Of a DNA stretch of 53,413 nt, positions 26,783-43,294 are shown piece after piece. A model generated the notes under the pieces. It saw only the letters and a program-made list of their open reading frames with translations. It was not told where the DNA came from and made no database searches. The position numbers were made by a program, and so were the translations under genes. This DNA comes from a virus. Its lineage: Duplodnaviria; Caudoviricetes. The stretch covers positions 1 to 53,413 of the IMG/VR virus record IMGVR_UViG_3300023116_000063; one strand, 5' to 3'. Numbering within the stretch: the stretch's first letter is position 1; each line of letters begins with the position of its first letter.

Positions 26783-26992
26783 TTATCCTAATGCGACTGC
26801 TACTGCGATTGCGAAACCTTCTGAAGCACCAGCAGATGCGTTTGCAACTTCAACTACTGTACCATCAGATTTTTTTGTATAAATCTTTTGGTCAGCAGAG
26901 TTGATTGCAACTTCTCCAACTTCCAAATCGCCTGAAGATGGAACTGAAGATGCAGTTTCAGAGCGTTTTGGTCTAATCGCAACAGTAGCCAT
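26783..26992 (-). CDS. Minimal adaptor protein (KRS-type N-domain plus AVALG C-terminus)
   Basis: N-terminus is paralogous to that of 27019-28995; C-terminal EGFAIAVAVALG matches 42884-43294. Confidence 0.7.
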   Translation of the reverse strand: MATVAIRPKRSETASSVPSSGDLEVGEVAINSADQKIYTKKSDGTVVEVANASAGASEGFAIAVAVALG

Positions 26993-27018
26993 AATGTGTT
27001 ATCTCCTAAGACTACTTA

Positions 27019-28995
27019 TTAGAATGTTCCACCGTCAATACTTGTAGCCCATGAGATTGTGTCTGTAGATGCACTGTAAGATAGGAAACCATCATTTGCA
27101 CCACCACCATCAAGAGCACTGAAAGTATCAGCAGAGTTTGCAATAAGTACAGAACCCTTTGCGGCAGATGTAATTCCTGTTCCACCATATGCAACACCAA
27201 TTGTGTCTGCGTTCCATGTTCCAGTTGTAATTGTTCCTAAAGTAGTAATAGTATTTTGTCCAACATAAGTTGAAGCAATGTCAATCGCATTTGCAGAAAC
27301 AGAGATACGGTTTGCAGTTCCTACTGCATCAATAGTGTTACCAGTTTTTGTTAAACCGTTACCAGCAGAAATCTGTCCAGCACCAGAGAACTGGTCAAAA
27401 GTAATGTCATCAGTTCCAAGTGTTGGTGTTCCATTGTGTGTTGCAACATAACCATTGTCTGCGTTTGCAGTACCTTCTTCAACGAAAGTAAATGCACCAC
27501 CAGTGATTTCAGAAGCTTCGTTTGCGTCTGGTGTTCTGGTAAGAACGAATGCAGCAGAACCAGAACCAACTGTTGTTACTTTATAGAAACCATTCTCGAC
27601 TGCATCACTTTGGTCTTTAACAAGAACTCTGTCGTTCAATGAAAGTGAAACACCATCAATTGAAATAGCACCGTTTGCATTTGCAGTCAATGTGCCTGCA
27701 CCGTTAGCATATGTTGCAGACAAGTCAGCAGTAGTTGCAACTCTTACAGATGCCTTAACATCAAGTCCGTTTGCAACTTGGTCAACATATGTTTTATTAA
27801 CAAGTGAATCTGAACCAAATCCTGCTCTTGCTTCATAACCAGAAGGAACTGTAACTGTTCCTGTTCCGTCTGGAGCAAGTGCCAAGTTACCATTTGAGTT
27901 TGTGGTTGAGATTGTGTTTGCGTCAACTGTAATGTTATCAACGTCAAGTGAAGTGATACCATTCAAGTCTGTCTGAGTTCCACCAAGTGAAACTGTGTCA
28001 GAACCAATTGTTACAGAACTGTTTACAAGTTTTGCATTTGTGATTGAACCAGCAAGTTGTGCGTTAGTTACTGTTCCTGTCAACTGTGTGGTTGCAATAG
28101 AAAGTGCAGCCTGGTGTTGTGTAACAGAACCTTGTGTGATATTTGCGTTTGGTACGTTTGCCCAAACAACAGCAGCAGACAAGTCGTTTGTTTCTGTTGT
28201 CAAAAATCCAGAATTTGAGTTATCATAGTTTGACAAGTCGTTGTCAACAACCAAATCAATCGCACCATCATTAGCATCATCATAAGTTGCAGTAATGAGA
28301 GTGTGTGAACCATTTGTTACTAATTGAGCTCCAACAATATCTTCTACTCTTTCTGCATTTACAGTAACGGCACCACTTGTTACAGTAAAGTCTGTAGAAT
28401 CAAACGATGCGATACCTTTGTTGGATGAAGTTGCATCTTCACCAGCAATTGTAATTGTGTTGTTTGTTACTGTTGTATCAATACCTTCACCACCAGTGAA
28501 CGTAATTGTTTCGCCAGTAGATACTGCATCATTAGAACCACTATCAGCAGCAATCGAAAGTGATTGTGTGACTGTTCCAAATGAAAGTTCACCAGAACCA
28601 TTCGTTGTAAGGAACTGTCCAGCAGAACCATCTGCACTTGGTAGTGTGAATGTTACACTTGCTGCCAAAGAGTTTGGAGCTTTCAATGCAACATGATCTG
28701 TTCCATTTGAAGTTCCTTCTTTAAGTTTGATTGAACCACCAGTTGCTGAGTTATTCCCAACAATGAAGTCATCAATTGCTTTGTTACTATCAACAAGGAT
28801 AGCAGAACTAGCAGTCAGAGTTCCAGCGGTATGATCAACTAAGTCATTATAATATTTACCGCCGATTAGTTTTACTGTAGAACCATCACCGATATAGAAT
28901 TTCTCGTTGCCGTGGGTATAGGCGAGTTCACCGTCTGCAAGGGATGATGGCGCAGTTGATCCAGTAGATCTTTTAATTTGTAGGGTTAATGCCAT
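27019..28995 (-). CDS. Long fibre / virion structural protein
   Basis: IKRSTG..AP..L.DGELAY N-domain, GLDVK.SVRVATT...DRVLVKDQ...NG.Y domain, ends DGGTF. Confidence 0.8.
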   Translation of the reverse strand: MALTLQIKRSTGSTAPSSLADGELAYTHGNEKFYIGDGSTVKLIGGKYYNDLVDHTAGTLTASSAILVDSNKAIDDFIVGNNSATGGSIKLKEGTSNGTDHVALKAPNSLAASVTFTLPSADGSAGQFLTTNGSGELSFGTVTQSLSIAADSGSNDAVSTGETITFTGGEGIDTTVTNNTITIAGEDATSSNKGIASFDSTDFTVTSGAVTVNAERVEDIVGAQLVTNGSHTLITATYDDANDGAIDLVVDNDLSNYDNSNSGFLTTETNDLSAAVVWANVPNANITQGSVTQHQAALSIATTQLTGTVTNAQLAGSITNAKLVNSSVTIGSDTVSLGGTQTDLNGITSLDVDNITVDANTISTTNSNGNLALAPDGTGTVTVPSGYEARAGFGSDSLVNKTYVDQVANGLDVKASVRVATTADLSATYANGAGTLTANANGAISIDGVSLSLNDRVLVKDQSDAVENGFYKVTTVGSGSAAFVLTRTPDANEASEITGGAFTFVEEGTANADNGYVATHNGTPTLGTDDITFDQFSGAGQISAGNGLTKTGNTIDAVGTANRISVSANAIDIASTYVGQNTITTLGTITTGTWNADTIGVAYGGTGITSAAKGSVLIANSADTFSALDGGGANDGFLSYSASTDTISWATSIDGGTF

Positions 28996-29013
28996 TTTTT
29001 TATCTTCCTATTG

Positions 29014-29304
29014 TTAAAAACTTCCACCACTCAATACGAGATTTCCAGTGGTTGTATCAAGTTCGTTTCGGGCAGTCCATTTTCCAGTAGATGAACGGTA
29101 CTGCAACAAAGAACCATCTGATAATGGAAAAGATGTTGTATCAACATCTGATAATCCAGAGAGTTGCAGAGATGCAGCTCCCACAACTGATCCAGAATCC
29201 CCCTTGGGGCCTGGAACTGTTACACGAGTTACTTGTGGTTGGTTTCCTTGTGATACAGAACCAACTACTGTTCTTGGTGTATTTACTGTTGCTGTAATTG
29301 CCAT
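29014..29304 (-). CDS. Small virion adaptor protein
   Basis: VPGPKGD, L..LSDVD, G.LLQY...KW; ends GGSF. Confidence 0.7.
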   Translation of the reverse strand: MAITATVNTPRTVVGSVSQGNQPQVTRVTVPGPKGDSGSVVGAASLQLSGLSDVDTTSFPLSDGSLLQYRSSTGKWTARNELDTTTGNLVLSGGSF

Positions 29305-29308
29305 AGTT

Positions 29309-29644
29309 CTACCTTGATACGCTTGGGTTTACAGTTGCAATACCTTCTACCACTCTTGTTTTAGAACCAGAAGAATCTGTTATGACTAAATCATAAACAT
29401 ATCTACCATCCTCAAGAGCAGCGGTTTGCGTGTCTGTTAGTGAAATTGTGATTTGACCAGAAGTTCTTGGCGTTTCAAATGTCGAAGTAAATGTTGTTGC
29501 AGTTGTAGATGCATATGTCTTGCGAATCATCGCAAGTGCAGTATAACCTGTCAAATCAAGTGCAGAACCAGCGGAATCGTTGATTGTCACTGTAGTAGTG
29601 AAATCAGCACTTTGGTCTATGAATAAATTAGAAATAGTTGCCAT
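29309..29644 (-). CDS. BppU-N-like virion protein
   Basis: NL.IDQ.ADF, DLTGYT..A.IRK, GRYVYD, RVVEG...V.P.V. Confidence 0.75.
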   Translation of the reverse strand: MATISNLFIDQSADFTTTVTINDSAGSALDLTGYTALAMIRKTYASTTATTFTSTFETPRTSGQITISLTDTQTAALEDGRYVYDLVITDSSGSKTRVVEGIATVNPSVSR

Positions 29645-29700: not shown

Positions 29701-31404
29701 TTAGTTTGATTCTAGAGCAGTGATACGAGCTTCTAATTCTTGAATTGTCTTTACGAGTAGAGGAACAAGCTTGCTTTGGTCGATTCCTTGATAAACAGGG
29801 TTGCCATCATCATCTACTTCATCGTGTGTGCCTGTGATTGCTTCTGGAACAACTGACTGCACCTCATGTGCTAAGAAGCCATCTACTGTTGTATCTGCAT
29901 CTGCTATGAAGTTAAATCTTTTTGGTTGTAGTTGCTTGAGCCTTGTTGTAGCATCTGTCATCTCAACCACGTTATCCTTTAGGCGATAATCTGATGAGGT
30001 GTTATATGATGTTGATGAGCCACTAGTGCTAATAGTACCTACGACACTATTAATATTTTTAAAACATATATGGTGCATTGTAGAGGAACTATCTTTATTT
30101 GTTACAATAGCATAAGCATTAGCATCAGTAGAACTTGCATTAAAATAAGCACAACCAATAGAGCCAACATTTAAATATGGGTTTGTACTTGAATTAAATC
30201 TGTATATTTTAAAAGAGCCTGAAGTATGATGATTTATATCACCATTTGATGTTATACGCATACGTTCTGCTCTAGAGCCACTATCCCTAGACACAAACAC
30301 AAAATCTGATGCATTGTTACTGCTGTTCTGAACTCCACCAATGTACCATTCACCATTAGATTCCGTAGTAAACGACATAATCGAGTTATTTAAAGCACCA
30401 GAGGTGCTATTCTTTAGACCAAGTATATTGTTAAATGCCGCAGACAACGGGTTATAATCCGTATCAGAATCATTTTGAACTTGAACAGGGGTGTTTGGAT
30501 TATCAGTACCAATGCCCACTCTGCCGTTGCTGTCGATACGCATACGTTCAACATCACCAGTACCAAAAGTTAATTCTGGAGCTGCACCGCCGGTAGCACC
30601 AATTCTTGCCTGAGCTTCTGTTGACCTCATTCCAAAAACAATTTGTCCACCAACAGTAATATTAGAATTAGCAGGATTTTCTAAATAAATTGTGGGGCCA
30701 ATACCAACTTGACCATCTGCATCAGTAGCATCATAAGTTGTAGCATCAGATTTTTTTAAGTGTAAGAAACTAGATGGGTTGGTCTCGCCGAGGCCCAATT
30801 TGCCATCGGACAAAATACTCATACGCACACCGCCGCCAGTCAGCAATTCCATTGCATTTGAACTATTTGCTCTAATTGCAAGACTCTCTGCGCCGCCAGT
30901 ATCTTGCATCGCAAAATAAGAGGCGTTAGGCAAAACCAACTTATTTGTCATACTGCTTACGCCAATGCCCACGTTGCCGGCATTGTCGATACGCACCTTT
31001 TCAGCTACTGTTCCATTATTATTAGTTTTAAAAGCAAGGCCGCCGAAGTTATTTCCAATATTGATACCCTCTACAGTACCGTGAATTTCTTCTGCTTTGA
31101 AACGCAAAACAGCAACTCCACCTGTACCTCCCTCAACATCAATATCACCTTTAACATGAAGTTCTTTAGAAGGCGAAGTTGTGCCGATGCCCACTCTATT
31201 ATTTGTACTGTCTAGATAAAGTGTTCCAGAATCATAGTTTAGGTTATTGGCAAGTTTAGCACCAGTGACAGCACCATCAGTGAGTTCAGATACAGTTACA
31301 GAGTTCGCAGCAAGATCGTCAGCAACAATTACATCTACACCAATCTTGGCAGATGTGATAGCGTCATCTTGAATACCGTCTGTTTTAATTCTTGAAATTG
31401 GCAT
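29701..31404 (-). CDS. Tail fibre with Peptidase S74 chaperone
   Basis: ERMRI...G.VGIGT repeats; YNTSSDYRLKDNV...QELEARITALE. Confidence 0.85.
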   Translation of the reverse strand: MPISRIKTDGIQDDAITSAKIGVDVIVADDLAANSVTVSELTDGAVTGAKLANNLNYDSGTLYLDSTNNRVGIGTTSPSKELHVKGDIDVEGGTGGVAVLRFKAEEIHGTVEGINIGNNFGGLAFKTNNNGTVAEKVRIDNAGNVGIGVSSMTNKLVLPNASYFAMQDTGGAESLAIRANSSNAMELLTGGGVRMSILSDGKLGLGETNPSSFLHLKKSDATTYDATDADGQVGIGPTIYLENPANSNITVGGQIVFGMRSTEAQARIGATGGAAPELTFGTGDVERMRIDSNGRVGIGTDNPNTPVQVQNDSDTDYNPLSAAFNNILGLKNSTSGALNNSIMSFTTESNGEWYIGGVQNSSNNASDFVFVSRDSGSRAERMRITSNGDINHHTSGSFKIYRFNSSTNPYLNVGSIGCAYFNASSTDANAYAIVTNKDSSSTMHHICFKNINSVVGTISTSGSSTSYNTSSDYRLKDNVVEMTDATTRLKQLQPKRFNFIADADTTVDGFLAHEVQSVVPEAITGTHDEVDDDGNPVYQGIDQSKLVPLLVKTIQELEARITALESN

Positions 31405-31429
31405 TTGCGTTCTCTCTGTTTCTCTTTAT

Positions 31430-31627
31430 TTATTCTGCATCTGGTAATGGGTCTGCGTCTGCAATTGTTAAGTCACCAGATTCTACTTGTCTGAGTATTT
31501 CTGCGTAGTGTCTGTTAGCAGGGTCTAGTGGTACAGACATTGGGATATCATCTATTATTGCTAAAATACCAGAATTAACTCCTTCAAACTGTAAATACTT
31601 AGCTGATAAAATGTTTAAATTTTCCAT
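31430..31627 (-). CDS. Small fibre-partner protein (paralog of 34263-34433)
   Basis: NI.SA.Y...N..Y.EI.RQVE.G.LTIA.AD. Confidence 0.75.
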   Translation of the reverse strand: MENLNILSAKYLQFEGVNSGILAIIDDIPMSVPLDPANRHYAEILRQVESGDLTIADADPLPDAE

Positions 31628-32785
31628 TTATAACTCCGAATCTGCTGTCCACCCAGCAATATGAGACTTATCTGTTGTAAATCCACTAGCTTTGTACGCC
31701 AAAAAAATACCTTGCTTAGATGAACTATTAACTGTAACACCTGTTATATCAGGGCTACCAATCTGATGTACACCTCCTGCCGTTCCGGCATTATTATAAA
31801 GAACACAAGTAGGATTAGTTCTCATTTCTACTGGAAACCTGTTTCCACCCCATGCTTCACTAGCGTTGTAAGAATAAAACCACATTGGACTAGATGTAGC
31901 ATTAGCAATAGACGTACTTTGCTGATAATACCTCTTACAAAGATGGAGTTCAGCAGCATATGTGCTATGCTCGAATGTGGTAGCCTCAGTGCCTTCTTCA
32001 AGTTGTAATTGTGCAAATTGAATTTTATCAGCGGTGTTATGACAATTACCAAATGCCCAATATATCTGCAATCCTTTGTCAAAGTTTGTCAAAGAAGTAG
32101 CAGAAGTTCTTGTAACCGTAAAATAATACCATGTATCTACTGAAGTAAGTGTGAGCGTTCCATTGTTAGCAGCTGTTCCATCACCAGAAATTGTTGCAGA
32201 AGTAAACGCAGCACCATGTGTAGTGTATCCAGCAAAGTTATCTGTTGCAGTAGGACAAATGATGTTAGTTGAAATTGCTTGGTTTACACTGCCACTTCTT
32301 TTAATATAACCACTGATAGTAAATGAATTTTTTGCTCTAATACCAGCAAGAGATGAGGACTCTACTCTTTGTCCAAAGTAACCAGCACCATTTCCACTGT
32401 TTGCACTTGTTGGGCCTCTTACCTCTGCAAATTTATTGTTAGCACCGCTGGCAGTTGGGCCTCCATCAAATACATGATGTGTAGCACCAGTAGGAGTTTG
32501 ATCAAAATGCCCGAACCACCTGTCTGGAGAAAGATATTGCCAAATACCACCAGTATACGTTACTGATGTGCCTCTTTGAGCTATTCTGAAATTGCCATTG
32601 ATAAAGACATTTCTTCTACCAGTTTCAACACCAAGTTTACTTCCAGTAACAGCATCATCAGCAATTTTTGCAGAAGAAACAGAACCGTCAGAAATCTTTG
32701 CCTGTGTAACAGAACCATCAGCAATGTCAGTGTTTACAACTGTATTGTCTGGTATTGCTCTTGAATTTAGTTTAATGAGTGCCAT
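31628..32785 (-). CDS. Fibre / RBP with carbohydrate-binding-like module
   Basis: RN..ING.F...QRGTS...DRW; QLE.G..AT.FEH..Y..EL..C.RYY. Confidence 0.78.
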   Translation of the reverse strand: MALIKLNSRAIPDNTVVNTDIADGSVTQAKISDGSVSSAKIADDAVTGSKLGVETGRRNVFINGNFRIAQRGTSVTYTGGIWQYLSPDRWFGHFDQTPTGATHHVFDGGPTASGANNKFAEVRGPTSANSGNGAGYFGQRVESSSLAGIRAKNSFTISGYIKRSGSVNQAISTNIICPTATDNFAGYTTHGAAFTSATISGDGTAANNGTLTLTSVDTWYYFTVTRTSATSLTNFDKGLQIYWAFGNCHNTADKIQFAQLQLEEGTEATTFEHSTYAAELHLCKRYYQQSTSIANATSSPMWFYSYNASEAWGGNRFPVEMRTNPTCVLYNNAGTAGGVHQIGSPDITGVTVNSSSKQGIFLAYKASGFTTDKSHIAGWTADSEL

Positions 32786-33065: not shown

Positions 33066-34232
33066 TTATCCTATTCTATACCATGCATGATAATTGCGTC
33101 CATTACTATCTGATTGAACACTTGAACTTGTAGAGTTATTATCAGAGAACATTTGATGATGAATATCTTGGTTATCAGCAGATGTGGTTACAATCCATGT
33201 TTGATGAATTTGAATGTTAAAAAGTTCAGCAGTACCACCACCTCTGTTCTCAAGATTCATTCTATACGTTGAATAATTATATTTGTCGTTTATAACAGCA
33301 GATGTGGTGTTGTTGTACAATCTTGATAAAATCATTCCATGCACACCCCACATTCTAATTCTCATTGTGGCCTCAAGTCGATAGTCGCCCGCCTTTGGAA
33401 GAACCCAACGATAATATGTGTTATTTGGTGTACCCCATGAGTTGTAAGGAACATTACTATCACCAATAGAATCTGACCCCAAAGCGTTATATGCAGTTCC
33501 ACTAGTTCCAGTAAATGCAGTTGCATCAATAATACCATCATGGTCTAGATTTATAGAAGTTCCACCTGCTGTTCCAGCATCATTCAAAATTCTCCAATGT
33601 GCTTTATCGCCAGACATGAACCAGTTCATGGTTCTTCTATCGGCAGTCATGTCGGTGTTTGTTATAGATAATTCTGCACCGTTGGCATTATTACCATATA
33701 CGACAAGTTTTCTATTTGGTGTTAATGTACCAATACCTAATGTTGGTGTTGCCCCACCAATGAATTTTAAGTCATCCGAAACATTAAAAGTTCCATTAAC
33801 ATCTAAGTTTCCAGCAACATCAATATTCGTATCTAGTTTTGCAGAAGTCACTGCACCACTAGCAAGTTCTGTTGTATCAACAGCCCCAGCAGCAATCTTT
33901 GCAGTTGTTACAGCATCATTTGCCAACTGACTTGTATTAACAGAACCAGCACTAGGTACACCGATATCCAGTGTATCACCAAGTGCAATGATAAAGTCAA
34001 TAACGTCAGCACTTGTCAATGCAGAGTCAAAGATAATCTGTGAACCACTGACTGTGAATGAATCTTGAGGAGCCTGAATAACACCATTAAGTGAAACCAA
34101 CAGGTGATTAGCACTTTGAGGATAGTATGCACCACTATCAAGTGTCAAGTTATAGGTAGCAGTCGCAGAAGTTGTGATTGCATCTAACTTTGAATATGCA
34201 CCAGCCTGTGGTTGTTTTCCGATAAATGGCAT
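33066..34232 (-). CDS. Fibre / RBP (MPFIG class)
   Basis: MPFIGK, LLVSLNGVIQ.P domain, AVTSAKLDTNI linker, unique tip. Confidence 0.78.
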   Translation of the reverse strand: MPFIGKQPQAGAYSKLDAITTSATATYNLTLDSGAYYPQSANHLLVSLNGVIQAPQDSFTVSGSQIIFDSALTSADVIDFIIALGDTLDIGVPSAGSVNTSQLANDAVTTAKIAAGAVDTTELASGAVTSAKLDTNIDVAGNLDVNGTFNVSDDLKFIGGATPTLGIGTLTPNRKLVVYGNNANGAELSITNTDMTADRRTMNWFMSGDKAHWRILNDAGTAGGTSINLDHDGIIDATAFTGTSGTAYNALGSDSIGDSNVPYNSWGTPNNTYYRWVLPKAGDYRLEATMRIRMWGVHGMILSRLYNNTTSAVINDKYNYSTYRMNLENRGGGTAELFNIQIHQTWIVTTSADNQDIHHQMFSDNNSTSSSVQSDSNGRNYHAWYRIG

Positions 34233-34262: not shown

Positions 34263-34433
34263 TTAGTCTGCTTCTGCAATAGTTAGTGTGCCTGCTTCTA
34301 CTTGGCGCATGATTTCGTCATATTCGACATTCCCCACAACACAAGGAATTGCATATTGTTTGCCTTCAATTGTTGCGATGATACTTATATTTCCTTCACT
34401 ATATTGTGCAGATGTAATATTCATATTTTTCAT
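34263..34433 (-). CDS. Small fibre-partner protein, 56 aa (below the ORF-track cutoff)
   Basis: Manual translation MKNMNITSAQYSEGNISIIATIEGKQYAIPCVVGNVEYDEIMRQVEAGTLTIAEAD; paralog of 31430-31627. Confidence 0.8.
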   Translation of the reverse strand: MKNMNITSAQYSEGNISIIATIEGKQYAIPCVVGNVEYDEIMRQVEAGTLTIAEAD

Positions 34434-34436: not shown

Positions 34437-35456
34437 TTATAACTCCGCCTTTGCTTCAAAGGGATGTGTAGAAAAATCAGTGTTCGTTCCACCCACACCC
34501 CAAATCTCGCCAGTAGAACCACCAGAAAACCCACTTAATTTGAAGTGTCCACCATTTGCATTCATTGATGTGCTTGTTAGTGTTGGTGTAGCATCTCTAT
34601 CTCCAACACCCCATTCATAAAGTCTAATAGTTCCTCCAGTAGGCAATCCAATAGTTGGAGCAGTCCTCTTTTCAACTTTGAACTGTCCGTTTACAACAAG
34701 TCCAGAACCAGATTCAAATCTTGACCACCAACCTTGTCCAAACTTTTCATAATACCTCTGACAGAGCGAAAGCTCTTCTCCGTATGAACGGTGTTCAAAT
34801 GGAGTAGCAACCGAGCCAATCTCTAATTTCATTTGTGCAATATCAATATCAACATTTGATGCAGGCAAACTTCTAATAAAAGCAATATAAAGATAACTAC
34901 TTGTTCCTATTGTCTTACCAGAAATACTTGGAAGGACAATATTAAAAGTAAATTTTTGCCATGAAGTGGTTAATGAATATGATTGTGCTGATGGAACAAC
35001 TTGAGAACTACCACCACTTCCAAAATTCTGTCCTAGTTCTATTGTAGAACTGTGAGCAGTAGATGCCTTACCCCAAAAGGATAATGTTACGGTTTGTCCA
35101 GCACCAGTTCTCACATCTTCAATTCTATGATGAACAACTTTATTTGATGATGTAGAACCAGCAGTAAATCGAAAGTAGTAAGTTGGTTCGCCAGGAACAT
35201 CTGTTTGTCCAGCAGTAAATGATTGTCGAGTTACATTATCACCAGTAGTTCCACCACCAGCGACAACATACATCCTATCAGCAGTGTAAACATTATTGAC
35301 ATCACTGAATGATGTGCCTCTTTGCCAGACATTAAATCCGCCATTGATAATCAGATTTTTTCCAGCCATATTGGATGACTGTGGAGTAAATCCGTTAATG
35401 GTTGTAGTTAAACCAGAAGAAGAATCTGTAATTGTATCTACTTTTAATGTACTCAT
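34437..35456 (-). CDS. Fibre / RBP with carbohydrate-binding-like module
   Basis: Start MSTLKVD; KNLIINGGFNVWQRGTS; LE.GSVATPFEHRSYGEELSLCQRYY. Confidence 0.78.
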   Translation of the reverse strand: MSTLKVDTITDSSSGLTTTINGFTPQSSNMAGKNLIINGGFNVWQRGTSFSDVNNVYTADRMYVVAGGGTTGDNVTRQSFTAGQTDVPGEPTYYFRFTAGSTSSNKVVHHRIEDVRTGAGQTVTLSFWGKASTAHSSTIELGQNFGSGGSSQVVPSAQSYSLTTSWQKFTFNIVLPSISGKTIGTSSYLYIAFIRSLPASNVDIDIAQMKLEIGSVATPFEHRSYGEELSLCQRYYEKFGQGWWSRFESGSGLVVNGQFKVEKRTAPTIGLPTGGTIRLYEWGVGDRDATPTLTSTSMNANGGHFKLSGFSGGSTGEIWGVGGTNTDFSTHPFEAKAEL

Positions 35457-35770
35457 TCTGGTTTCTCCGGCCATACCACATCATCCAGTGATGTATATGT
35501 GTCTGTAATATCTCTTAGTGCCTGTCTGTATGTTTTCCATGCAGCAGGAATGTTTGTTCCTAGTTCCTTGTGCATAGTGACAACCCAATCTGTTTCTACG
35601 AGTTTGGCATTACGAATCATTCTTACTTCTTGAAGATTTAATTCTATCATAACTGCATCATCATCATATGAAACTACATTATCATCCTTATCGTAAGGAA
35701 CACCATCAATAACTTTAACAGCAGATGGATTCAATTTCATAATTGCAAAATCTTTACTACCTAGTCTCAT
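35453..35770 (-). CDS. Tail fibre assembly chaperone-like protein
   Basis: R..RN..L.ETDW...W..YRQALRDIT...VVWPEKP. Confidence 0.8.
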   Translation of the reverse strand: MRLGSKDFAIMKLNPSAVKVIDGVPYDKDDNVVSYDDDAVMIELNLQEVRMIRNAKLVETDWVVTMHKELGTNIPAAWKTYRQALRDITDTYTSLDDVVWPEKPE

Positions 35771-36390
35771 TGTTTGATCTCCATCAATGTCATGTCATTA
35801 TTATAATTATATCCACAACCTAGTTGTCCAGAACCAGACTGTAATGTAACCACCAAAGTAAAAGTAATTGCACTTGTTGTATTATAACTAGAGAAAAGTT
35901 TCTGTCCACCATAATGCATTCTTGCGCCAGTAGTGTAAACTGAGTTAGGATAACCAATCGCATCGGCAAGATAGTTACTTCCTAATGTAGCAGTTCCACT
36001 AGCACCACCAGCGATACTGTAATTATATTGGGCTCTCCAATATGCACCAGCAGCGTTATCCATATGATAAGCGGAATTTGTAATCATTAAAATTTTAGAA
36101 CTTGCATATATTGGAGTGATTGTTGCAGTTTGAAGTGTTAGACTACCAGTGGATATAGAAGCTGGGGCGCCATTAGTATGAACTGTTTGAACTACAGAAC
36201 CAGCTGGTAACTCATCTCTAACTGCATTAGTAGCAAGTATTGCTGATGTAACAGTTCCACTATCACCTGTTGTCACAACATTTCCAGTAACATCTGGAAT
36301 GGTCAAAGTGCGATCAGTATTCGTGTTTGGAGCAACAATGTTTATTGTTCCAGTTCCACTCGCATTTGGTGTTATCGCAATTTTACTCAT
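35767..36390 (-). CDS. Short fibre / tip protein
   Basis: NTDRTLTIPD.TG, LPAGSVVQTV, ITP....SKI, MTLMEI. Confidence 0.72.
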   Translation of the reverse strand: MSKIAITPNASGTGTINIVAPNTNTDRTLTIPDVTGNVVTTGDSGTVTSAILATNAVRDELPAGSVVQTVHTNGAPASISTGSLTLQTATITPIYASSKILMITNSAYHMDNAAGAYWRAQYNYSIAGGASGTATLGSNYLADAIGYPNSVYTTGARMHYGGQKLFSSYNTTSAITFTLVVTLQSGSGQLGCGYNYNNDMTLMEIKQ

Positions 36391-36421
36391 CTACTTTTCC
36401 TGTTTCTCATATTCTTATTTA

Positions 36422-36679
36422 TTACGGTTTAGTAGGCCATACAACATCATCCAATGAAGAATATGTGTCTGTAATATCTCTGAGAGATTGTCTGTATGTT
36501 GCCCATGATGTTTTTTGTGAATCTGTCAAAGGACTATCTGCACCTTGTGTCCAATCTGTTTCTATCAACAAATGATTTCTCATTGCACGAAGGTCTGCCA
36601 TGTTCTTTTGTGTAACTGCGGCATCACCAGTAACAGATGAAACTGTTCCATCAGAATTAAAATATACGACTTCACTCAT
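36422..36679 (-). CDS. Tail fibre assembly chaperone-like protein
   Basis: LR..RN.LL.ETDWTQ..DSPL...W.TYRQ.LRDIT...WPTKP. Confidence 0.82.
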   Translation of the reverse strand: MSEVVYFNSDGTVSSVTGDAAVTQKNMADLRAMRNHLLIETDWTQGADSPLTDSQKTSWATYRQSLRDITDTYSSLDDVVWPTKP

Positions 36680-37266
36680 TGTGCTATCTCCGTGATTGTT
36701 AGACCACTACCACCACCAACTCTATTCCATGCATATTCACCACCAGTACAATATTGTCCATAACCATAAATTGAGAATACAATTGATTGTCCTAAAGTGT
36801 AAGACAATGCACCAGTAAGACCACTAACCACATGGTTTACATATGTATTACTACCACCGTAATGTCCAGTATCAATACCAGCAGCGGTAACAGTACCACC
36901 AGCAATAGAGTATTTTACTAACGAATAAATTGCACCAACACCAGTAGTGTTCGCAAAACCAACTGAAGACACCTTTCCATCAACTTTAAATTTACTACCA
37001 GTTCTTACTGGTGTTATTGTAACACTATAGTTGGTAAGTAGTGCGTGTCCAGTTGCAGCGCCACCAGCATCAGCAGTTGTATTGTAGTTTGTTCCACTTG
37101 CACTATTGACTACTTGAATTGCAGTGCCAGATGGCAAGTCAGAACTGGCCAAACCATAAGTAACTGTCTTGCCACTCAAGTCTAGAGTAGATGCCAAATC
37201 AGCAGTCTGAACTACTCCGTCTTGGATTAAACTTACACCAGTTGTTCCGTCTATTGTTACAGCCAT
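36676..37266 (-). CDS. Short fibre / tip protein
   Basis: MAVTIDGTTG, LPSGTAIQVV, ITP...SKF, LTITEIAQ; paralogous to 35767-36390. Confidence 0.72.
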   Translation of the reverse strand: MAVTIDGTTGVSLIQDGVVQTADLASTLDLSGKTVTYGLASSDLPSGTAIQVVNSASGTNYNTTADAGGAATGHALLTNYSVTITPVRTGSKFKVDGKVSSVGFANTTGVGAIYSLVKYSIAGGTVTAAGIDTGHYGGSNTYVNHVVSGLTGALSYTLGQSIVFSIYGYGQYCTGGEYAWNRVGGGSGLTITEIAQ

Positions 37267-37469
37267 TATACTACCACCAATCTTGCACCAGAGGAAACTG
37301 TGAGGGTGACACCACTATTCACTGTGATAGGCCCAGCAGTTACGCCGTTCTTATCAGCAGCAAGAGTATAGTCTACTGTCATAGTCTGATCATTGATAAA
37401 GAAAACAGCATCAGAACCGCCTCCGTCAATATTTTCTATAACTTGTGCCTGAACTTTCGATAGTGGCAT
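37266..37469 (-). CDS. Minimal adaptor protein
   Basis: MPLSKV N-peptide fused to 'F..N.Q....DYT....N...AGPITV.SGVTLTV.SG.RLVVV'. Confidence 0.7.
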   Translation of the reverse strand: MPLSKVQAQVIENIDGGGSDAVFFINDQTMTVDYTLAADKNGVTAGPITVNSGVTLTVSSGARLVVV

Positions 37470-37838: not shown

Positions 37839-38909
37839 TTACGATGTTTTATAAACCAACATTGCCGTAAAAAACGACATTTGAGTAGTAACGTCTTGAC
37901 CGCCCTTAAATACTCTGGGTGGATTAAAACCGTGAATATTTCCAACTTGGCTGCTGGGGTTTGAACCCCAAATCCCAATACCCATATTGCCTTGTGCTTG
38001 CGACACTGCAAACGGCAAACCACCAATAACTAGAAACGAACCCGCTGTGCCACTTGTTCCACCATCAACTCTTATTTGACAAGTTACTGTGTTGCCAATC
38101 TTAGTATACTGTCCATTTGATAAACTGAATGTCGAATCATTAGTGCTAGTGTGATATAGGGTCGGCGTAAAAGTGCCTTCTTCATAATCGTCAAGGGCGT
38201 TAGCAGCTGTATAACCACTATTACCAAAGACAACTGTTCCGCCAGTTCCCACACACACATGGATACCAGCGTTATTTGCATTTTGAATATTTCCACGAAG
38301 AGTACCAGTTCCAGAACCAGAGTAGAAACCCAACATTCCACCTAAGTTACCAGAGTTAGTATCGTTAATTTGCATACCATTTGTAGATGCAGAACTAAAA
38401 TTAACACCTAGTGGAGTTCCACCAGCACCAAGAGTTCTACCACCTAAATTTATTGAGTTTGCAGTTGAATTACCAACTACAGCAAGTGTTGAATCAAGTG
38501 TAGTTGCACCAGTAACATCCAGTGTTCCTGCCACATCAATATTCGTATCTAGTTTTGCACTAGTGACAGCATTGTTTACTAGTTTTGCACTAGTGACAGC
38601 ATTGTTTACTAGTTTTGCAGTTCCAATAGAAAGGTCTGCTGGAACGACTGAACTTTCGATTGTTCCAGCAATATGAAGAACATAGAAATTAACACCAGTT
38701 GCTGGTGCAACACTCATCGTCAAAGTTGTTCCATTAACTGTATAAGCGTCTGTAGGTTCTTGGCGAACATTACCTACATAGACAGCAATATCAGTTACAG
38801 TTGCAACTTGTTTTGATAACGTAAATACTGTGGTTGTACCGTCTGCTGTAAAATCATCCTTGACGATTGTAGCAAAACCAGCGGTTGGATTTTTTCCAAT
38901 AAATGGCAT
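37839..38909 (-). CDS. Fibre / RBP (MPFIG class, DDYEEGT tip)
   Basis: MPFIGK, F.ADG.TT.FTL domain, AVTSAKLDTNI, ANALDDYEEGTFTP...YTKIG. Confidence 0.8.
   Translation of the reverse strand: MPFIGKNPTAGFATIVKDDFTADGTTTVFTLSKQVATVTDIAVYVGNVRQEPTDAYTVNGTTLTMSVAPATGVNFYVLHIAGTIESSVVPADLSIGTAKLVNNAVTSAKLVNNAVTSAKLDTNIDVAGTLDVTGATTLDSTLAVVGNSTANSINLGGRTLGAGGTPLGVNFSSASTNGMQINDTNSGNLGGMLGFYSGSGTGTLRGNIQNANNAGIHVCVGTGGTVVFGNSGYTAANALDDYEEGTFTPTLYHTSTNDSTFSLSNGQYTKIGNTVTCQIRVDGGTSGTAGSFLVIGGLPFAVSQAQGNMGIGIWGSNPSSQVGNIHGFNPPRVFKGGQDVTTQMSFFTAMLVYKTS
38549..38619. repeat. Perfect 30-bp tandem duplication (about 2.3 copies; KLVNNAVTSA)
   Basis: agttttgcactagtgacagcattgtttact occurs twice, plus a partial copy. 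Confidence 0.95.
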
Positions 38910-38923: not shown

Positions 38924-39256
38924 TTAGGTTTTTTCCATAATACCCAAAACAACATCAAGTGCAGAACCAGTGCCTGCCTGAACCTTGAGAATGTCTGCGG
39001 CCTCTAAAATATATTTTTGTCCAGCAAGAGTTTCCAATGTAGTATTTGCTGGAATACTTACATCCTCTAGTAATTGGTGTGTTGTACTCGCAGAACTATC
39101 TGTGAATTGAACCTTAACTGTCACCGCTGAAGTTGTTTTATTAGCGATGGCAAGTCCAAGAACAACAACTTGTGTAGCAGCAGGCGCAGTGTATAGAGTA
39201 TCATATGAACCAGATGATACATCAGCAAGGGCCGCATTTTTGAATGTGTTCGCCAT
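38924..39256 (-). CDS. MANTFK-type virion adaptor protein
   Basis: Paralog of 42504-42848 (MAN.FKNA...GQK..L...D...V.A...DVV..I.E.T). Confidence 0.78.
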   Translation of the reverse strand: MANTFKNAALADVSSGSYDTLYTAPAATQVVVLGLAIANKTTSAVTVKVQFTDSSASTTHQLLEDVSIPANTTLETLAGQKYILEAADILKVQAGTGSALDVVLGIMEKT

Positions 39257-39271
39257 GTTTCTTTCCTATTG

Positions 39272-39910
39272 TTATCCTAAAGCAATCGCAAGTGCAGTTG
39301 CATCATCTTCTGGATCAAATGCGAGATCAACTCGTGCAATCGAACCATCTTGAATTTTTGCAGAAGTGACTGTATTATCTGCAATAGTATTTAGTGTGTT
39401 AATGTTATTAAGTTGATAAACTTGAATATTATTTGTTCCACTTGCTGGAGCGCCTGTGAATGTAAGCGTCTGTCCAAGTACAGTAAATGCATATGAAGAA
39501 CCTTCTCTTTGATAGACATTATCTACAAAGACAATGAAGTTTCTTGCATCATTGGTTACTGGTGTTCTTGTAAGTGTAAACGCAACAGTAGAACCATCTC
39601 CATTGAATATATCAACGAAAGATTCGGACTGAGTAACAGATGCCTGTAGTAGTTGTCTACCCAAATATGTGATAAAGACTCTACCAGCCGCATCTGGTGC
39701 TTCAGAGAAATTAATAACTCCCTGTCCTGTAGAACTAGAAACTGTATATGAATGATCTGGCTCTTGGATAACACCATCCAAAGAAACCAACAGCTGCGAA
39801 GATGTTGCGACAGGATGGTCTAAATTGAATTGTGTTGTCGAACCATCACCAGTAAGTACTTGTTTATCAAATACTCCGTAGGACGGTTCTGCTCCAATAT
39901 AGTTACTCAT
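39272..39910 (-). CDS. Virion branching/adaptor protein (MSNYIG...ALAIALG)
   Basis: Two 'GDGST..F.L' domains; C-terminal ATALAIALG. Confidence 0.78.
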   Translation of the reverse strand: MSNYIGAEPSYGVFDKQVLTGDGSTTQFNLDHPVATSSQLLVSLDGVIQEPDHSYTVSSSTGQGVINFSEAPDAAGRVFITYLGRQLLQASVTQSESFVDIFNGDGSTVAFTLTRTPVTNDARNFIVFVDNVYQREGSSYAFTVLGQTLTFTGAPASGTNNIQVYQLNNINTLNTIADNTVTSAKIQDGSIARVDLAFDPEDDATALAIALG

Positions 39911-39941: not shown

Positions 39942-40226
39942 TTATTCTGCTTCTCTAGCAGCGACCATTGCTTGATACTCAGCTTCTCTATCTGCACCTG
40001 TTTGGACAACACCCAGTGTAAATGCCTGTTCAATTTGAGCATCTTCACCTGTTGCAATTGTAATGTCATTTGCATTACAATGTTCTAAGTTTTTTCTTAT
40101 GATATCAGCCTTAGCAGTATTGACACGAAAGTTAATCCAATTCTGAACAAACTCTTGAGCATCAAGACAGAGATAATTGATACATTTTTCTTCAGTATCA
40201 TTCAATGTAAATGTGTAATCAGCCAT
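39942..40226 (-). CDS. Small fibre-partner protein (paralog of 20170-20433)
   Basis: Shared CLD.QE..QNW and HCN.NDI motifs. Confidence 0.72.
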   Translation of the reverse strand: MADYTFTLNDTEEKCINYLCLDAQEFVQNWINFRVNTAKADIIRKNLEHCNANDITIATGEDAQIEQAFTLGVVQTGADREAEYQAMVAAREAE

Positions 40227-40698: not shown

Positions 40699-40707
40699 AT
40701 CTATTCC

Positions 40708-41682
40708 CTAAGATGTTGTATAATTACTACTTGCAAAATCAACCGGCACCCAATAAGTTACCTCTGCAATACCATTAAATCCGTTTGTGCCATTATGTGA
40801 TGCCAAAAATAATTGCAACCTATTTGATACTGAAGTATCAAAGGTTATTTGAAGAGTAGCATTTTCTTCATAGTCTGCCTGAATCAAAACTGGAGCTCCT
40901 GTGCCACCATCCCAATAATATTTCCCCCAAAAGTGGCCGTTTGCGACTCCAGATGTGTGTCCAGTTACAATATATTCAAATAAACATCTAAACCCATTTG
41001 CACCAGTTCCAGAAAGTTGAGAAATTAATGTACTAGAAGTAATATTAGAAAGAGCAAACACCTCTGAGTGTTTATAACCTCTACCTTGATATGAAGTCCA
41101 TGGCGCCTGTCTAATTGACGCACCTTCTCCAGCACTATTAGCATTTGTAGTTAATTGTAAAACTTTAGTATTTGTAGCATATGTTGATGGTGTGGTAGAA
41201 CCTATTCCAGTATTGCCACCACTGTCAATGTGCATTCTTGTACTGCCACTTGTTCCAAGTGCCAAATAATTAGTTATTGGGTCGCCAACAATTTGGATGG
41301 CGTTATTTGTTGCATTTGATCTCCAATAAATGTTTCCAGTATCAGCAGAACCAGAATTAACATTCATTGTCATTCCCACAGTTCCCGAACCAGCAGGATT
41401 TGTAAGTTCTAATTCATTTGCATTTGCATTACCAACAGCACTACCAGAACCAACCAATAAATTACTATCAGCAGTTAATTTACCAGTAACATCTAGTGTT
41501 CCAGCAATGTCAATATTCGTATCTAACTTTGCACTAGTAACAGCATCATCAGCAATCTTTGCTGTTGTTACATTTGCATCAGCAATCTTTGCCGTAGTAA
41601 CCGAATCGTTAGCAATATCCGTTGCATCAATAGTAACATCACCATTAAGAAGTTCTGCGAGAGTTTTTGATTTACTTGCCAT
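40708..41682 (-). CDS. Fibre / RBP
   Basis: VTTAKIAD repeats, AVTSAKLDTNIDIAGTLDVTG, RMHIDSGGNTGIG. Confidence 0.78.
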   Translation of the reverse strand: MASKSKTLAELLNGDVTIDATDIANDSVTTAKIADANVTTAKIADDAVTSAKLDTNIDIAGTLDVTGKLTADSNLLVGSGSAVGNANANELELTNPAGSGTVGMTMNVNSGSADTGNIYWRSNATNNAIQIVGDPITNYLALGTSGSTRMHIDSGGNTGIGSTTPSTYATNTKVLQLTTNANSAGEGASIRQAPWTSYQGRGYKHSEVFALSNITSSTLISQLSGTGANGFRCLFEYIVTGHTSGVANGHFWGKYYWDGGTGAPVLIQADYEENATLQITFDTSVSNRLQLFLASHNGTNGFNGIAEVTYWVPVDFASSNYTTS

Positions 41683-42491
41683 TATAGTTGATACCTTACC
41701 ATTATTTCTGATGCATTAACAGGAGCAAATGTAAATGTAATTGTAGTTCCACTGATACCATAATCAGTAGAAGGTTTCAAACACACACCATTGTAATATA
41801 CAAAAGCATTGTTTGCAGTTACACCAGAGTTTGTTAGGGTGAATGCAGTAGTAGAACCATCTCCTGTAAGATTGTCTATTTGAAAATCTGGGCCTCTGCG
41901 AATAACACCACGAATACCTAAATGTTTTACTTCAATCTCTGCACTAGCATCTGGTGCAGTAGTAAATGTCAATGTTGTTCCAGATACAGTATAGTTAGTT
42001 GTAATCTTTTGAACAATACCATCAACCATTACAAGGATTGAATTTCCAGCAGGCGGCGTTTCAGTCATTGTAAACGCAGCAGTAGAACCATCACCTGTGA
42101 ATGAATCTGTAGTAATATTTTTTAGTCCAGAAGCAAGTTGTGTTGTTCCAACAGAACCAGCTGGTGGTGTCATGTTGTAATTACCAATACCTCTATGTAC
42201 AACATAGATAGAAGCGTTTGATGCTGGTGCTTCTGAGAAATTTAAAATCTTTGGTTGGTTAGATGAATTCTCGTGAACAGTATATGCAATATCTGGCTCT
42301 TGAACCACGTTGTCCAATACAACCAAAAGGTTTTCTGTATTAGCGCCAGGAACATCAACAGATAGTTCTACGGCATTTGAGTATGTCGCATATGCTCCAG
42401 TTACACTACCAAAATTAGACCCATTAAAATCTTCCTTTGGAAAACTGGGCGAAATCTGATTAATGTATGGAACACCAATATAGTTAGACAT
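41682..42491 (-). CDS. Virion branching/adaptor protein (MSNYIG class)
   Basis: Three tandem 'V.(L/V)D..VQ.P / GDGST.AFT' domains; paralog of 39272-39910. Confidence 0.78.
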   Translation of the reverse strand: MSNYIGVPYINQISPSFPKEDFNGSNFGSVTGAYATYSNAVELSVDVPGANTENLLVVLDNVVQEPDIAYTVHENSSNQPKILNFSEAPASNASIYVVHRGIGNYNMTPPAGSVGTTQLASGLKNITTDSFTGDGSTAAFTMTETPPAGNSILVMVDGIVQKITTNYTVSGTTLTFTTAPDASAEIEVKHLGIRGVIRRGPDFQIDNLTGDGSTTAFTLTNSGVTANNAFVYYNGVCLKPSTDYGISGTTITFTFAPVNASEIMVRYQL

Positions 42492-42503
42492 TTAAATCAC
42501 CCC

Positions 42504-42848
42504 TTATGTTACATCTTCTAGAATAGAAGCAACAACATCGACAGTTGCAGCAGAAGCATACACTTGAACTTTGTCATCTCCATTCAATACAATCTTTTGG
42601 CCTGATACAACCTTCAAGGACGAGCCTGGAGGGATTGGAGCACTCTTTACAACATGATAAGATGCAGTTGCAGAACTATCATAAATGAGGACAGTTGCAG
42701 AAACAGCAGCAGTACCAGTGTTTGCTATATCAAGTTCGATAAGAATTGAATTGACGGCAGAACCATTATTTGCAGTATACACATCTGTCGGCGAACCACT
42801 TGAGGTGGAAACACTTGTAGCAAATGCATTCTTAAAATTGTTAGCCAT
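42504..42848 (-). CDS. MANNFK-type virion adaptor protein
   Basis: Paralog of 38924-39256. Confidence 0.78.
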   Translation of the reverse strand: MANNFKNAFATSVSTSSGSPTDVYTANNGSAVNSILIELDIANTGTAAVSATVLIYDSSATASYHVVKSAPIPPGSSLKVVSGQKIVLNGDDKVQVYASAATVDVVASILEDVT

Positions 42849-42883
42849 TCTTTATCTTCCTTTGTTTATCTTATTTATAATGT

Positions 42884-43294
42884 TTATCCAAGGGCAACTG
42901 CAAGTGCAATTGCAAAACCTTCAACTGCAATAGTTCCACTGGCGCCTGGGAATGTCAAGTCAACTCCGTTATCCCTAAGAATAAGATCTCCAGTACCAGT
43001 ATGATTAACATAACTGTTTAGACTGTCATGGTATATTTGTAAATCGTCATCTGTGCCGAATTTAATTCTTTCACTGTTTACACCTGTCGAATCATCAAAG
43101 TCAATGACTGTAGGAAACATAACACTACTGAGAGCAAGTTCAAGTTCTTGAATTGCTTCGATAACGTCTGTTACTGCTTGTCCGTTGACAGTAGACGGCA
43201 GATTCGCAATATCACCCACATCAGTTGCGAGTTCATTAAATTCTACTCTCCACTCTTCAAAAGTGAAACTAGCTGGTGCGTTACGATCTGCCAT
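42884..43294 (-). CDS. Virion protein with TFEEWR..FN anchor and AVALG C-terminus
   Basis: N-terminal 'TFEEWRVEFNELATDVGD', FGTDDDLQIYHD, EGFAIALAVALG. Confidence 0.72.
   Translation of the reverse strand: MADRNAPASFTFEEWRVEFNELATDVGDIANLPSTVNGQAVTDVIEAIQELELALSSVMFPTVIDFDDSTGVNSERIKFGTDDDLQIYHDSLNSYVNHTGTGDLILRDNGVDLTFPGASGTIAVEGFAIALAVALG

Follow-up and report, generated by a model that had tools for sequence, protein, structure and literature searches.

Conserved terminal motifs and candidate pair-specific joints in the fibre gene cluster of a T4-like marine phage

The fibre gene region

The 53,413-nucleotide virus sequence IMGVR_UViG_3300023116_000063 (Caudoviricetes), referred to as a whole as the window, carries at positions 26,783–43,294 a run of tail fibre genes in which a small set of terminal protein motifs recurs in a fixed order. 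The window is a 53-kb fragment, and its viral record is estimated to be 37% complete. Every gene of the region is on the minus strand, and genes are cited here by their lower coordinate in the window. The upstream flank contains a gp8-like wedge protein and a giant baseplate protein of 2200 amino acids (aa) with a DUF4815 domain (VrlC-type; 43523–50125, minus strand; Pfam PF16075, expect value (E) 6.7e-62), which forms the upstream border of the fibre module. The downstream flank contains homologues of gp13, gp14 and gp15, the neck and sheath-stabiliser genes. According to the available text of PMC7029224, the host-recognition cluster of pelagimyophages is located between VrlC and the neck genes. 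Since the fibre genes of the window lie between the DUF4815 protein and the neck genes, the region is the cluster termed host-recognition in that literature. It belongs to a T4-like marine myophage, whose nearest cultured relatives are the Methylophilales phage Melnitz (T4-like Kyanoviridae), with approximately 75% DNA identity across 15% of the region, and the pelagimyophage Mosig. The fibre genes of the cluster are left unassigned in the available portions of both the pelagimyophage (PMC7029224) and the Melnitz (PMC9004378) papers.

The initial annotation of the window had read the gene order as a docking code, in which a terminal motif of one protein is paired with a specific next protein. 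Translations were read, and regular expressions were counted over the 60 minus-strand open reading frames of the window. GG(S/T)F ends are found only in 29014 and 27019, and KRS..L..GE.A heads only in 27019 and 26783. A(I/V)ALG ends are confined to 42884, 39272 and 26783, MAN(N/T)FKNA heads to 42504 and 38924, and M(SNY/PF)IG heads to 41682, 39272, 37839 and 33066. M(P/A)(L/I)x(K/R) heads are present in six genes (51682, 37266, 31628, 29701, 22556 and 20452). The YIG and FIG proteins carry a GDGST-type domain, with two copies in 41682, two in 39272 and one each in 37839 and 33066 by regular expression; the PHROG tail-fibre profile phrog_18673 matches three stretches in 41682, two in 39272 and one each in 37839 and 33066. 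The motifs, their confinement to the genes first named, the gene order, the count of six short heads and the range of one to three domain copies were thus all recovered.

Conservation of the motif pairs in other phages

Adjacency was examined in a table of 1388 distinct adjacent gene pairs from IMG/VR loci. A strict GG(S/T)F end is followed by a KRS head in 72 of 72 cases, and a relaxed ALG tail is followed by a MANxFK head in 130 of 162. Crossed pairs are nearly absent (0/98 and 1/162), and the adjacency is far beyond chance. The loci of the table were fetched with either the 110-aa MANxFK-headed protein (the coupler, below) or the KRS head as query, and many are related; Fisher P values of the adjacency are therefore not independent probabilities. 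Fairer figures for the ALG-coupler joint are those at the level of clusters (25 of 35) and of isolates (10 of 15). Comparative sequence evidence supports the view that the terminal motifs are conserved, pair-specific junctions across many divergent phages with unrelated fibre bodies.

A probable joint of the T4 gp36/gp37 type

The first motif pair recurs along three successive proteins of the window. An LtfC-like protein of 111 aa (29309) and a 96-aa protein ending in ..SGGSF (29014) together occupy 29014–29644 (phrog_3304, phrog_1084), the latter in the position of gp36. The next gene encodes a 658-aa fibre (27019–28995; motifs and PHROG) with a gp37-type KRS head and a ..DGGTF end. The last, 26783, is a mini-adaptor of 69 aa (26783–26992), in which a gp37-type N-terminal docking domain is joined to a tail ..EGFAIAVAVALG (ALG subtype 1). 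The first 59 residues of 26783 are 38% identical to residues 1–60 of T4 gp37 (E 4e-12, BLASTP against gp37 1–100), and the PHROG families of long-tail-fibre distal subunits phrog_1699, phrog_19966 and phrog_35830 match at profile positions 1–60. By sequence homology, 26783 is a member of the gp37-type N-terminal docking domain family. In T4, gp36 ends in ..DFGYY and the gp37 that follows it contains ..FKRSK..GELAIN; trimeric gp36 binds the N-terminal region of gp37 (PMC3004832, section 18 of the available text). Judged by sequence on the gp37 side, the joint between the GG(S/T)F tail and the KRS..GE.A head is the gp36/gp37 joint of T4.

The same order holds in a wider sample of 77 further IMG/VR loci combined with the earlier ones, where a strict GG(S/T)F end precedes 71 of 93 distinct KRS heads, and a relaxed end precedes 87 of the 93. 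Among isolates, a short protein with a G-G-x-(F/Y) end precedes a KRS fibre in the Prochlorococcus phages MED4-213 and P-SSM2, the Synechococcus phage S-8S55, the Limnohabitans phage DC31, Mosig and Melnitz. In MED4-213, DC31 and S-8S55 it is the gene pair of the 29309/29014 type that precedes the KRS fibre, and in P-SSM2 the short GG.F-ended gene alone. The gene upstream of the KRS head is a candidate for the gp36 role, in that its G-x-aromatic end is conserved, yet it has no similarity to gp36. A tblastn search with 29014 matched only 6 records among isolate phages, too few for statistics, and the KRS head was used instead. A short C-terminal G-G-(S/T)-(F/Y) end would dock on the gp37-type N-terminal domain of about 55 residues in the next protein, and the chain in the window would run from 29014 to 27019 to 26783.

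The ALG tail, the putative jelly-roll coupler and the YIG head

The second arrangement is a triad, in which a protein with an A(I/V)ALG end is followed by a MAN(N/T)FKNA paralog and this by a YIG- or FIG-headed protein. It occurs twice in the window. The first triad opens with a putative root protein of 136 aa (42884–43294; translation and regular expression), which has a MADRNAPA.. N-terminus and ends in ..EGFAIALAVALG (ALG tail, subtype 1). It continues with jelly-roll coupler paralog 1 (42504–42848; 114 aa, MANNFKNA head; phrog_1276 and phrog_26609, no Pfam family) and with the MSNYIG protein 41682. The second opens with an MSNYIG protein of 212 aa (39272–39910; translation, PHROG and regular expression), which consists of two small domains resembling the XD modules of the CBA120 tailspike TSP4, a short stalk and a tail ..EDDATALAIALG (ALG subtype 2). 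Coupler paralog 2 (38924–39256; 110 aa, MANTFKNA head; AlphaFold model) and an MPFIG fibre of 356 aa with one XD-like domain, repeats and a tip (37839–38909; translation, PHROG) complete it. A second MPFIG fibre, of 388 aa and the same design (33066–34232; phrog_18673, E 3.8e-32), has no adjoining coupler gene.

The triad of ..ALG end, coupler and Y/F-I/L-G head does not vary among 80 close relatives, and the flanking bodies differ in length and sequence; the triad recurs in both podophages and myophages. Relatives of 42884 keep both ends constant around a variable middle (134 to 389 aa), and relatives of 37839 keep the head and vary in body and tip (166 to 445 aa). A census composed of a first IMG/VR scan and four scans seeded with distant couplers yielded 352 coupler genes in 36 clusters. 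The relaxed ALG tail is found upstream of the coupler in 278 of 332 rows and 25 of 35 clusters, compared with 13 of 812 background proteins, and these 13 are mostly themselves ALG proteins of fibre modules. The strict tail is found in 175 of 332 rows and 14 of 35 clusters (background, 9/812), and a YIG-type head downstream of the coupler in 222 of 337 rows and 13 of 34 clusters (background, 49/812).

Coupler homologues are held by 51 isolate records, of which 15, picked to span phage groups, were read. Ten of them have the hydrophobic tail by a fixed regular expression, three more (HMO-2011, PhiW-14 and S-PRM1) have look-alike hydrophobic tails that fail it, and seven have the head directly downstream. 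Isolates with a coupler homologue include the SAR11 podophages HTVC010P and HTVC115P, the roseophage CRP-9, the SAR116 phage HMO-2011, the cyanomyophages S-TIM5, S-SM2 and S-SRM01, Bordetella phage PHB04, Delftia phage PhiW-14 and Cobetia phage Carin-5.

In the proteins upstream of the coupler only the last 12 or so residues are conserved, on unrelated bodies of 55 to 1144 aa. The peptide ALAIALG is encoded by 37 different DNA strings, with all six leucine codons in use; the DNA varies freely, and selection consequently acts on the peptide and not on a DNA joint. The subtype of the ALG tail tracks the clade of the coupler. The cluster of 42504, for example, contains 99 copies, 85 of them with a called upstream protein, and all 85 of these proteins end in EGFxIA..ALG. 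In this joint, an acidic and then hydrophobic C-terminal peptide (..ALAIALG) would be coupled to an M.(Y/F)(I/L)G protein by the separate jelly-roll protein of about 110 aa, and the first domain of the YIG-headed partner would be of the T7-gp17-N/XD-like kind. The chains in the window would run from 42884 through 42504 to 41682, and from 39272 through 38924 to 37839.

The two coupler paralogs of the window, 42504 and 38924, are 38% identical. The AlphaFold model of 38924 is a compact jelly roll of eight to nine strands with a predicted local distance difference test (pLDDT) score of 94.9. Its closest folds in the PDB are generic oligomeric jelly rolls (7dou and 7vrr, both at Z 9.8); no single fold stands out, and cement protein, turret, nucleoplasmin, Ena and TNF-like jelly rolls all score at Z 7–10. 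No Pfam match was found at E<=0.1, no sequence relative was found by profile search of the PDB, and no known chaperone family was matched in Pfam or PHROG. The PDB profile matches, of which the MS2 coat protein was best (E 0.024), were at chance level and were rejected. The family comprises 1042 representative clusters at E<=1e-3 in a 50%-identity library. Relatives in Atlas and BFVD have either no name or the name "virion structural protein", which is also the record name, by annotation alone, of the homologues in HTVC010P, S-TIM5, S-SCSM1 and MaMV-DC.

The first seven residues of the coupler are strongly conserved. In one natural fusion (P0254) the coupler domain forms the N-terminus of a fibre. 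Among longer forms of the coupler, no natural case of an ALG tail fused to it was found, which is weak evidence only. A complex was predicted from 38924 and the last 53 residues of 39272, with three chains of each and their own alignments; it scored 0.31 and 0.26 against a mark of 0.32, with no folded controls to compare, and the outcome is evidence neither way. The coupler of about 110 aa is probably an oligomer.

Tandem double couplers of 207–307 aa also exist within one chain (P0136, P0160, P0183, P0209 and P0179), which hints at pseudo-hexameric or pairwise assembly of the single-domain form. A 307-aa protein (P0271), in which an aminotransferase domain (PF01041) is joined to a coupler fragment without the first residues, was rejected as a natural fusion; its most likely origin is a chimera of metagenome assembly or a wrongly called gene.

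Mini-adaptors

Two proteins of the window, 26783 and 37266, had been described as little more than one input motif joined to one output motif, and homologues and matched end modules bear out that both are conserved mini-adaptors. Twenty distinct proteins of 62–71 aa with a KRS head and an ALG tail were found, in two divergent lineages, and 26783 is therefore not debris. In other phages, proteins of the 26783 type are directly followed by a coupler and a YIG fibre. The complete chain, consisting of a GGSF end, a KRS..GGTYS fibre, a 63-aa KRS..ALAIALG protein, a coupler and a YIG fibre, is present in four IMG/VR loci (L205, L210, L221 and L224). Mosig has an equivalent chain, in which the KRS-ALG adaptor is 126 aa and is followed by the coupler and the YIG fibre. 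The AVALG end of 26783 has no adjacent partner in the window, as first noted; in these four loci and in Mosig the partner adjoins. By comparison of gene order, the partner of 26783 is displaced in the genome of the window and not absent. The tails of 26783 (EGFAIA.AVALG) and 42884 belong to one subtype, which is tied to the 42504 clade, so that the 42504 coupler is likely to be the partner of 26783 in trans.

The second mini-adaptor, 37266 (37266–37469; 67 aa), is composed of an MPLSK head and an end module of about 50 aa that terminates in ..GVTLTVSSGARLVVV, with PHROG matches to the C-terminal ends of fibres. Residues 13–67 are 49% identical to the C-terminal 52 residues of a 149-aa MPYIG protein of HMO-2011 (E 9e-12), and residues 22–66 align with the final 45 residues of MPFIG proteins of 166 aa in relatives (E 1e-10). 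MSTFKV.T heads follow three of four ..LVV ends, and the same order is found in HMO-2011 and relatives. The ..TLTVxSGxxLVV end module of 37266 may offer a site for small tip proteins, as a third joint. Both mini-adaptors would convert one type of joint into another.

Candidate hub proteins

The MSNYIG protein 41682 (41682–42491; 269 aa; Pfam Phage_T7_tail, E 6.3e-8) is composed of three small beta-sandwich domains and nothing else, and is a candidate hub. It passes the PF03906 cut-off (32.9 versus 25.2 bits), and 39272 is below it (20.0 bits). No Pfam match was obtained for 37839 and 33066, though the phrog_18673 profile matches both. The model of 41682 is a monomer with a pLDDT of 81.6, in which the three beta-sandwiches are connected by low-confidence linkers and no distal domain is present. 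In structural comparison (VIA), residues 126–269 superpose on residues 187–333 of TSP4, the XD2 and XD3 modules, at Z 9.4. The last domain (202–269) matches TSP4 XD2 (187–250) at Z 9.6, with a root-mean-square deviation of 1.6 Å over 64 aligned residues and 27% identity, and the middle domain (126–199) matches residues 6–86 of T7 gp17 at Z 7.9, and also the N-domains of other podophage fibres. The best Foldseek match of 41682 is the N-terminal 335 residues of TSP4 (7rej; E 2.5e-4). The protein thus has small beta-jellyroll domains superposable on XD2 and XD3.

In T4 gp10 and TSP4, trimerised XD2 and XD3 modules are platforms that bind partner trimers, according to the available text of PMC8825819. 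This likeness is the strongest support for the idea of hubs, which the fold makes plausible. With three XD-like domains in 41682, and two together with an ALG tail in 39272, these proteins would act like T4 gp10 or the N-terminal part of CBA120 TSP4, and their small beta-sandwich domains, once trimerised, would be platforms on which further fibres are seated. The gene after 41682 encodes a 324-aa fibre with a MASKSK head, AVT.AKI repeats and a tip (40708–41682), and in relatives such a fibre always follows the candidate hub.

Interpretation and alternative explanations

We consider it fairly probable that the fibre apparatus consists of many short polypeptides joined head to tail through a few conserved, pair-specific joints. 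Gene order would then mostly be assembly order, as for T4 genes 34–37. Of the plug-and-socket system first proposed for the window, the pair-specific conserved joints, the docking-type folds and the mini-adaptors stand; the physical contacts of the second and third joints, a branching of the chains and the seating of given fibres on given domains are inferred.

Several observations weigh against this apparatus. No sequence similarity to T4 gp36 was detected in 29014, and in P-SSM2 and S-8S55 a second ..GGTF or ..CGSY end of a KRS fibre has no KRS follower. The relaxed ALG tail is missing in 10 of 35 coupler clusters and the YIG head in 21 of 34; the isolates DSL-LC04 and 023Pt have no ALG tail; and in HTVC010P and PHB04 the YIG gene is one to three genes further on. 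Two genes of the window itself, 26783 and 33066, are without an adjacent partner. The fold matches of the coupler are generic, at Z just under 10, and XD-like beta-sandwiches are also found inside giant virion proteins (phrog_701 and phrog_4406), in which they may be spacers. The loci used for the KRS and coupler joints were ascertained through the coupler or the KRS head. Finally, adjacent genes are inherited together, so that linkage may partly underlie both the conserved adjacency and the correspondence of tail subtype to coupler clade.

The least improbable alternative, which we still regard as rather unlikely, is that the joints are real and the fibres linear. There would be a few long, unbranched fibres, as in the long tail fibre of T4, the XD-like domains would be shaft or spacer, and the other fibres would attach independently to the baseplate or neck. 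The chains read from gene order are indeed linear, whereas 41682 is an XD-like array without a tip of its own, and G7C-like adapters of such a design exist (PMC6872550, available text). XD-like domains do occur inside giant structural proteins, and XD1 is held to be a spacer in the available text of the TSP4 paper (PMC8825819); however, the best structural match of 41682 is to the partner-binding modules XD2 and XD3 and not to XD1. The six M(P/A)(L/I)x(K/R) genes stand after chaperone genes without a specific upstream partner, and the fibres 22556 and 20452 lie beyond the neck genes, as independent attachment would allow. Linear chains are less readily reconciled with two ALG tails of the same subtype (42884 and 26783) that face a single coupler paralog, or with a ..LVV end module that precedes several small tips.

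It is also possible, and in our view unlikely, that the 110-aa jelly roll is an assembly factor or decoration, such as a chaperone capping the ALG tail or a knob on the fibre, and that ALG tail and YIG head are in direct contact with one another or with the baseplate. Small genes beside fibre genes are often chaperones, and the window contains several (36422 and 35453), but the coupler matches no known chaperone family and its homologues in four phages bear the record name of virion structural protein. Its generic fold resembles cement and decoration proteins (7dou), whereas the P0254 fusion sets the coupler domain at the N-terminus of a fibre, and its invariant place between tail and head, together with the conserved first seven residues, fits a connector. 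The complex prediction gave no answer in either direction, and two ALG proteins, 26783 and a 71-aa protein of Melnitz, are without an adjacent coupler.

A third explanation, which appears improbable, is linkage without docking. The genes would form a mobile multi-gene cassette that is inherited or exchanged as a block, its boundaries would perhaps be recombination joints, and the end motifs would serve the folding or trimerisation of their own proteins. Adjacent genes are inherited together, the loci were fetched as homologues of a single cassette member, tail subtype and coupler clade vary together as linked genes would, and the bodies between conserved ends are freely swapped, as recombination at conserved boundaries yields. 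On the other hand, the ALAIALG peptide is kept over 37 codings, which indicates a constraint on the protein, and the docking function of the KRS head is established in T4. The same ends flank unrelated bodies in podophages and myophages, and the mini-proteins with nothing but a head and a tail are difficult to account for unless they are connectors. In view of the free synonymous variation, we reject the idea that the conserved ends are due solely to a recombination linker at the DNA level.

The joined-polypeptide apparatus can be extended to a broader proposal, which we put forward tentatively and with some doubt. The cassette of ALG peptide, jelly roll and YIG head may be an undescribed universal coupling by which any proximal fibre segment is connected to any distal one in marine podophages and myophages of SAR11, OM43, roseobacters, SAR116 and cyanobacteria. 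Tail subtypes would be a specificity code, the adaptors of 62–71 aa would convert the gp36/gp37-type joint, and the coupler of the window would be a branch point for two ALG proteins.

Comparison with known systems

The long tail fibre of T4 (gp34-gp35-gp36-gp37) is similarly composed of several polypeptides encoded in assembly order. The likeness extends to the KRS..GE.A head of 27019 and 26783, homologous to the part of gp37 that binds trimeric gp36, and to the G-x-aromatic end of the upstream protein (..DFGYY in T4, ..GGSF in the window). In contrast to T4, the 96-aa upstream protein of the window does not resemble gp36 in sequence, the joint occurs two times in succession and ends in a 69-aa adaptor instead of a receptor-binding fibre, and a gp35-like knee protein is lacking; the 110-aa coupler bears no relation to that protein in size and has no Pfam family.

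CBA120 TSP4-N/TSP2, G7C gp66 and T4 gp10 resemble the window proteins in having tandem small beta-jellyroll domains at the N-terminal end of the fibre (TSP4 XD2/XD3, Z 9.4–9.6, 19–27% identity). The domains of the window, however, match the T7 tail-fibre N-domain family (PF03906) by sequence, 41682 has no AD-like anchor domain and instead starts with a YIG head after a coupler gene, the hosts and phage family differ, and it is for TSP4 and gp10 that partner trimers are known. The N-terminal domain of T7 gp17 binds the adaptor/nozzle of the podovirus tail. The domain of the YIG proteins matches it in Pfam and in structure, and is likewise at the extreme N-terminus; in the window it is found in a myophage, in one to three tandem copies and after a coupler gene.

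A logic of anchor domain, T4gp10-like branching domain and conserved N-terminal docking peptides of 7–29 residues has been described for Klebsiella phages, K1-5/SP6, G7C and CBA120, and some adapters of these branched systems lack the enzymatic part (PMC6872550, Latka et al. 2019, available text). The interaction of receptor-binding proteins of the Klebsiella type was later validated experimentally (PMC13352976, available text), and Hardies and colleagues remarked on fibres of several polypeptides in marine podophages (PMC4819975, available text). In the Klebsiella-type systems, as would be the case here, standard units are reused to mount several receptor-binding proteins. The Klebsiella and K1-5/SP6 systems use N-terminal peptides only, whereas the window adds C-terminal plugs (ALG and GG.F), a free coupler of 110 aa and two-motif mini-adaptors, and the window-type system spreads through marine podophages and myophages and is known from sequence alone.

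The grammar had first been thought undescribed, which holds in part. The general logic of anchor, branching domain and docking peptide is published (PMC6872550, available text). No description of the ALG peptide/jelly-roll coupler/YIG cassette, its breadth over podophages and myophages or the two-motif mini-adaptors was found in open-access papers and bioRxiv, nor was a structure of a cassette-carrying phage. None of the matches listed for the motif strings ALAIALG, AIALG, MANTFKN and MANTFK was a phage paper, and no such grammar is described in the available text of the Melnitz (PMC9004378) and pelagimyophage (PMC7029224) papers. The new part thus looks to be the coupler cassette and the mini-adaptors, and the general plug-and-play logic was already known.

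In the most abundant marine phages, host range is determined by fibre modules that have hardly any annotation. A small set of recognisable joints would allow fibre proteins to be sorted from sequence alone into root, hub, adaptor and tip, and would account for the exchange of tips among phages that differ greatly. It would also extend the plug-and-play logic of Klebsiella and E. coli phages to marine T4-like phages and podophages. The coupler family, with at least 1042 clusters at 50% identity and no Pfam entry, is a concrete structural target.

Tips, chaperones and other genes of the region

Downstream of the mini-adaptor 37266 are three tip genes (36676, 35767 and 34437; 34437–37266; Pfam, PHROG), with the chaperone genes 36422 and 35453 after the first two. 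The product of 36422 belongs to Phage_tail_APC (E 1.9e-17; 63.3 bits versus a cut-off of 26.6); phrog_4912 matches both 36422 and 35453 (E 4e-22 for 35453), and phrog_4492 matches 34437. The longest open reading frame of 34437 (34437–35474, minus strand) opens with MAGETRMSTLKVDT, and the small tips of relatives and of HMO-2011 open with MST(F/L)K(V/A)(D/N)T. The true start of 34437 is probably the seventh codon (MSTLKVDT..), a start that would overlap slightly, over a few bases, with the stop of the chaperone gene 35453.

Two fibres with M(P/A)(L/I)x(K/R) heads, 31628 and 29701, occupy 29701–32785, with the small open reading frame 31430 between them (PHROG, Pfam, regular expression); 29701 has a Peptidase_S74 end. 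Two more such fibres (22556–24067 and 20452–21873, minus strand) are found beyond the neck and sheath-stabiliser genes, outside 26,783–43,294, and 22556 also has a Peptidase_S74 end. The initial annotation had set these short heads beside the GDGST domains, and nothing was found to link the two: the genes with these heads stand after chaperone genes and open new fibre cassettes, and no specific upstream end was found for any of the six genes. Four of the six also have in common the repeats after the head, and the likeness of the heads may be plain paralogy.

Several small genes accompany the fibres. Paralogs of 94 and 87 aa (39942–40226 and 20170–20433, minus strand) contain ..E.K....C.D.QE..QNW.. 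and each follow a fibre gene; they have no family match, similar genes of 87–97 aa occur in the locus L010, and they may represent another class of fibre assembly factor. Proteins of 56–65 aa that end in ..G.LTIA(E/D)AD (34263–34433 and 31430–31627, minus strand) are found after the carbohydrate-binding module (CBM)-like tips 34437 and 31628. Pairs of a tip and such a mini-protein recur in many relatives, without a family match, and the mini-proteins are probably tip-specific chaperones.

Directly after the DUF4815 gene is an 81-aa protein (43294–43539, minus strand), and counterparts of 67–75 aa are found in the same place in MED4-213, P-SSM2, S-8S55 and Melnitz. These proteins have in common a ..V(E/P).(H/Y)..L.RD....I.N.. 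start and a coiled-coil-like end. In Mosig (L098, 1–16400), many metabolic and modification genes lie within the host-recognition cluster, upstream of the 113-aa LtfC-like gene that opens the fibre chain. They include a carbamoyltransferase, a radical-SAM-like MoaA, aminotransferases and dioxygenases, and there is nothing comparable in the window.

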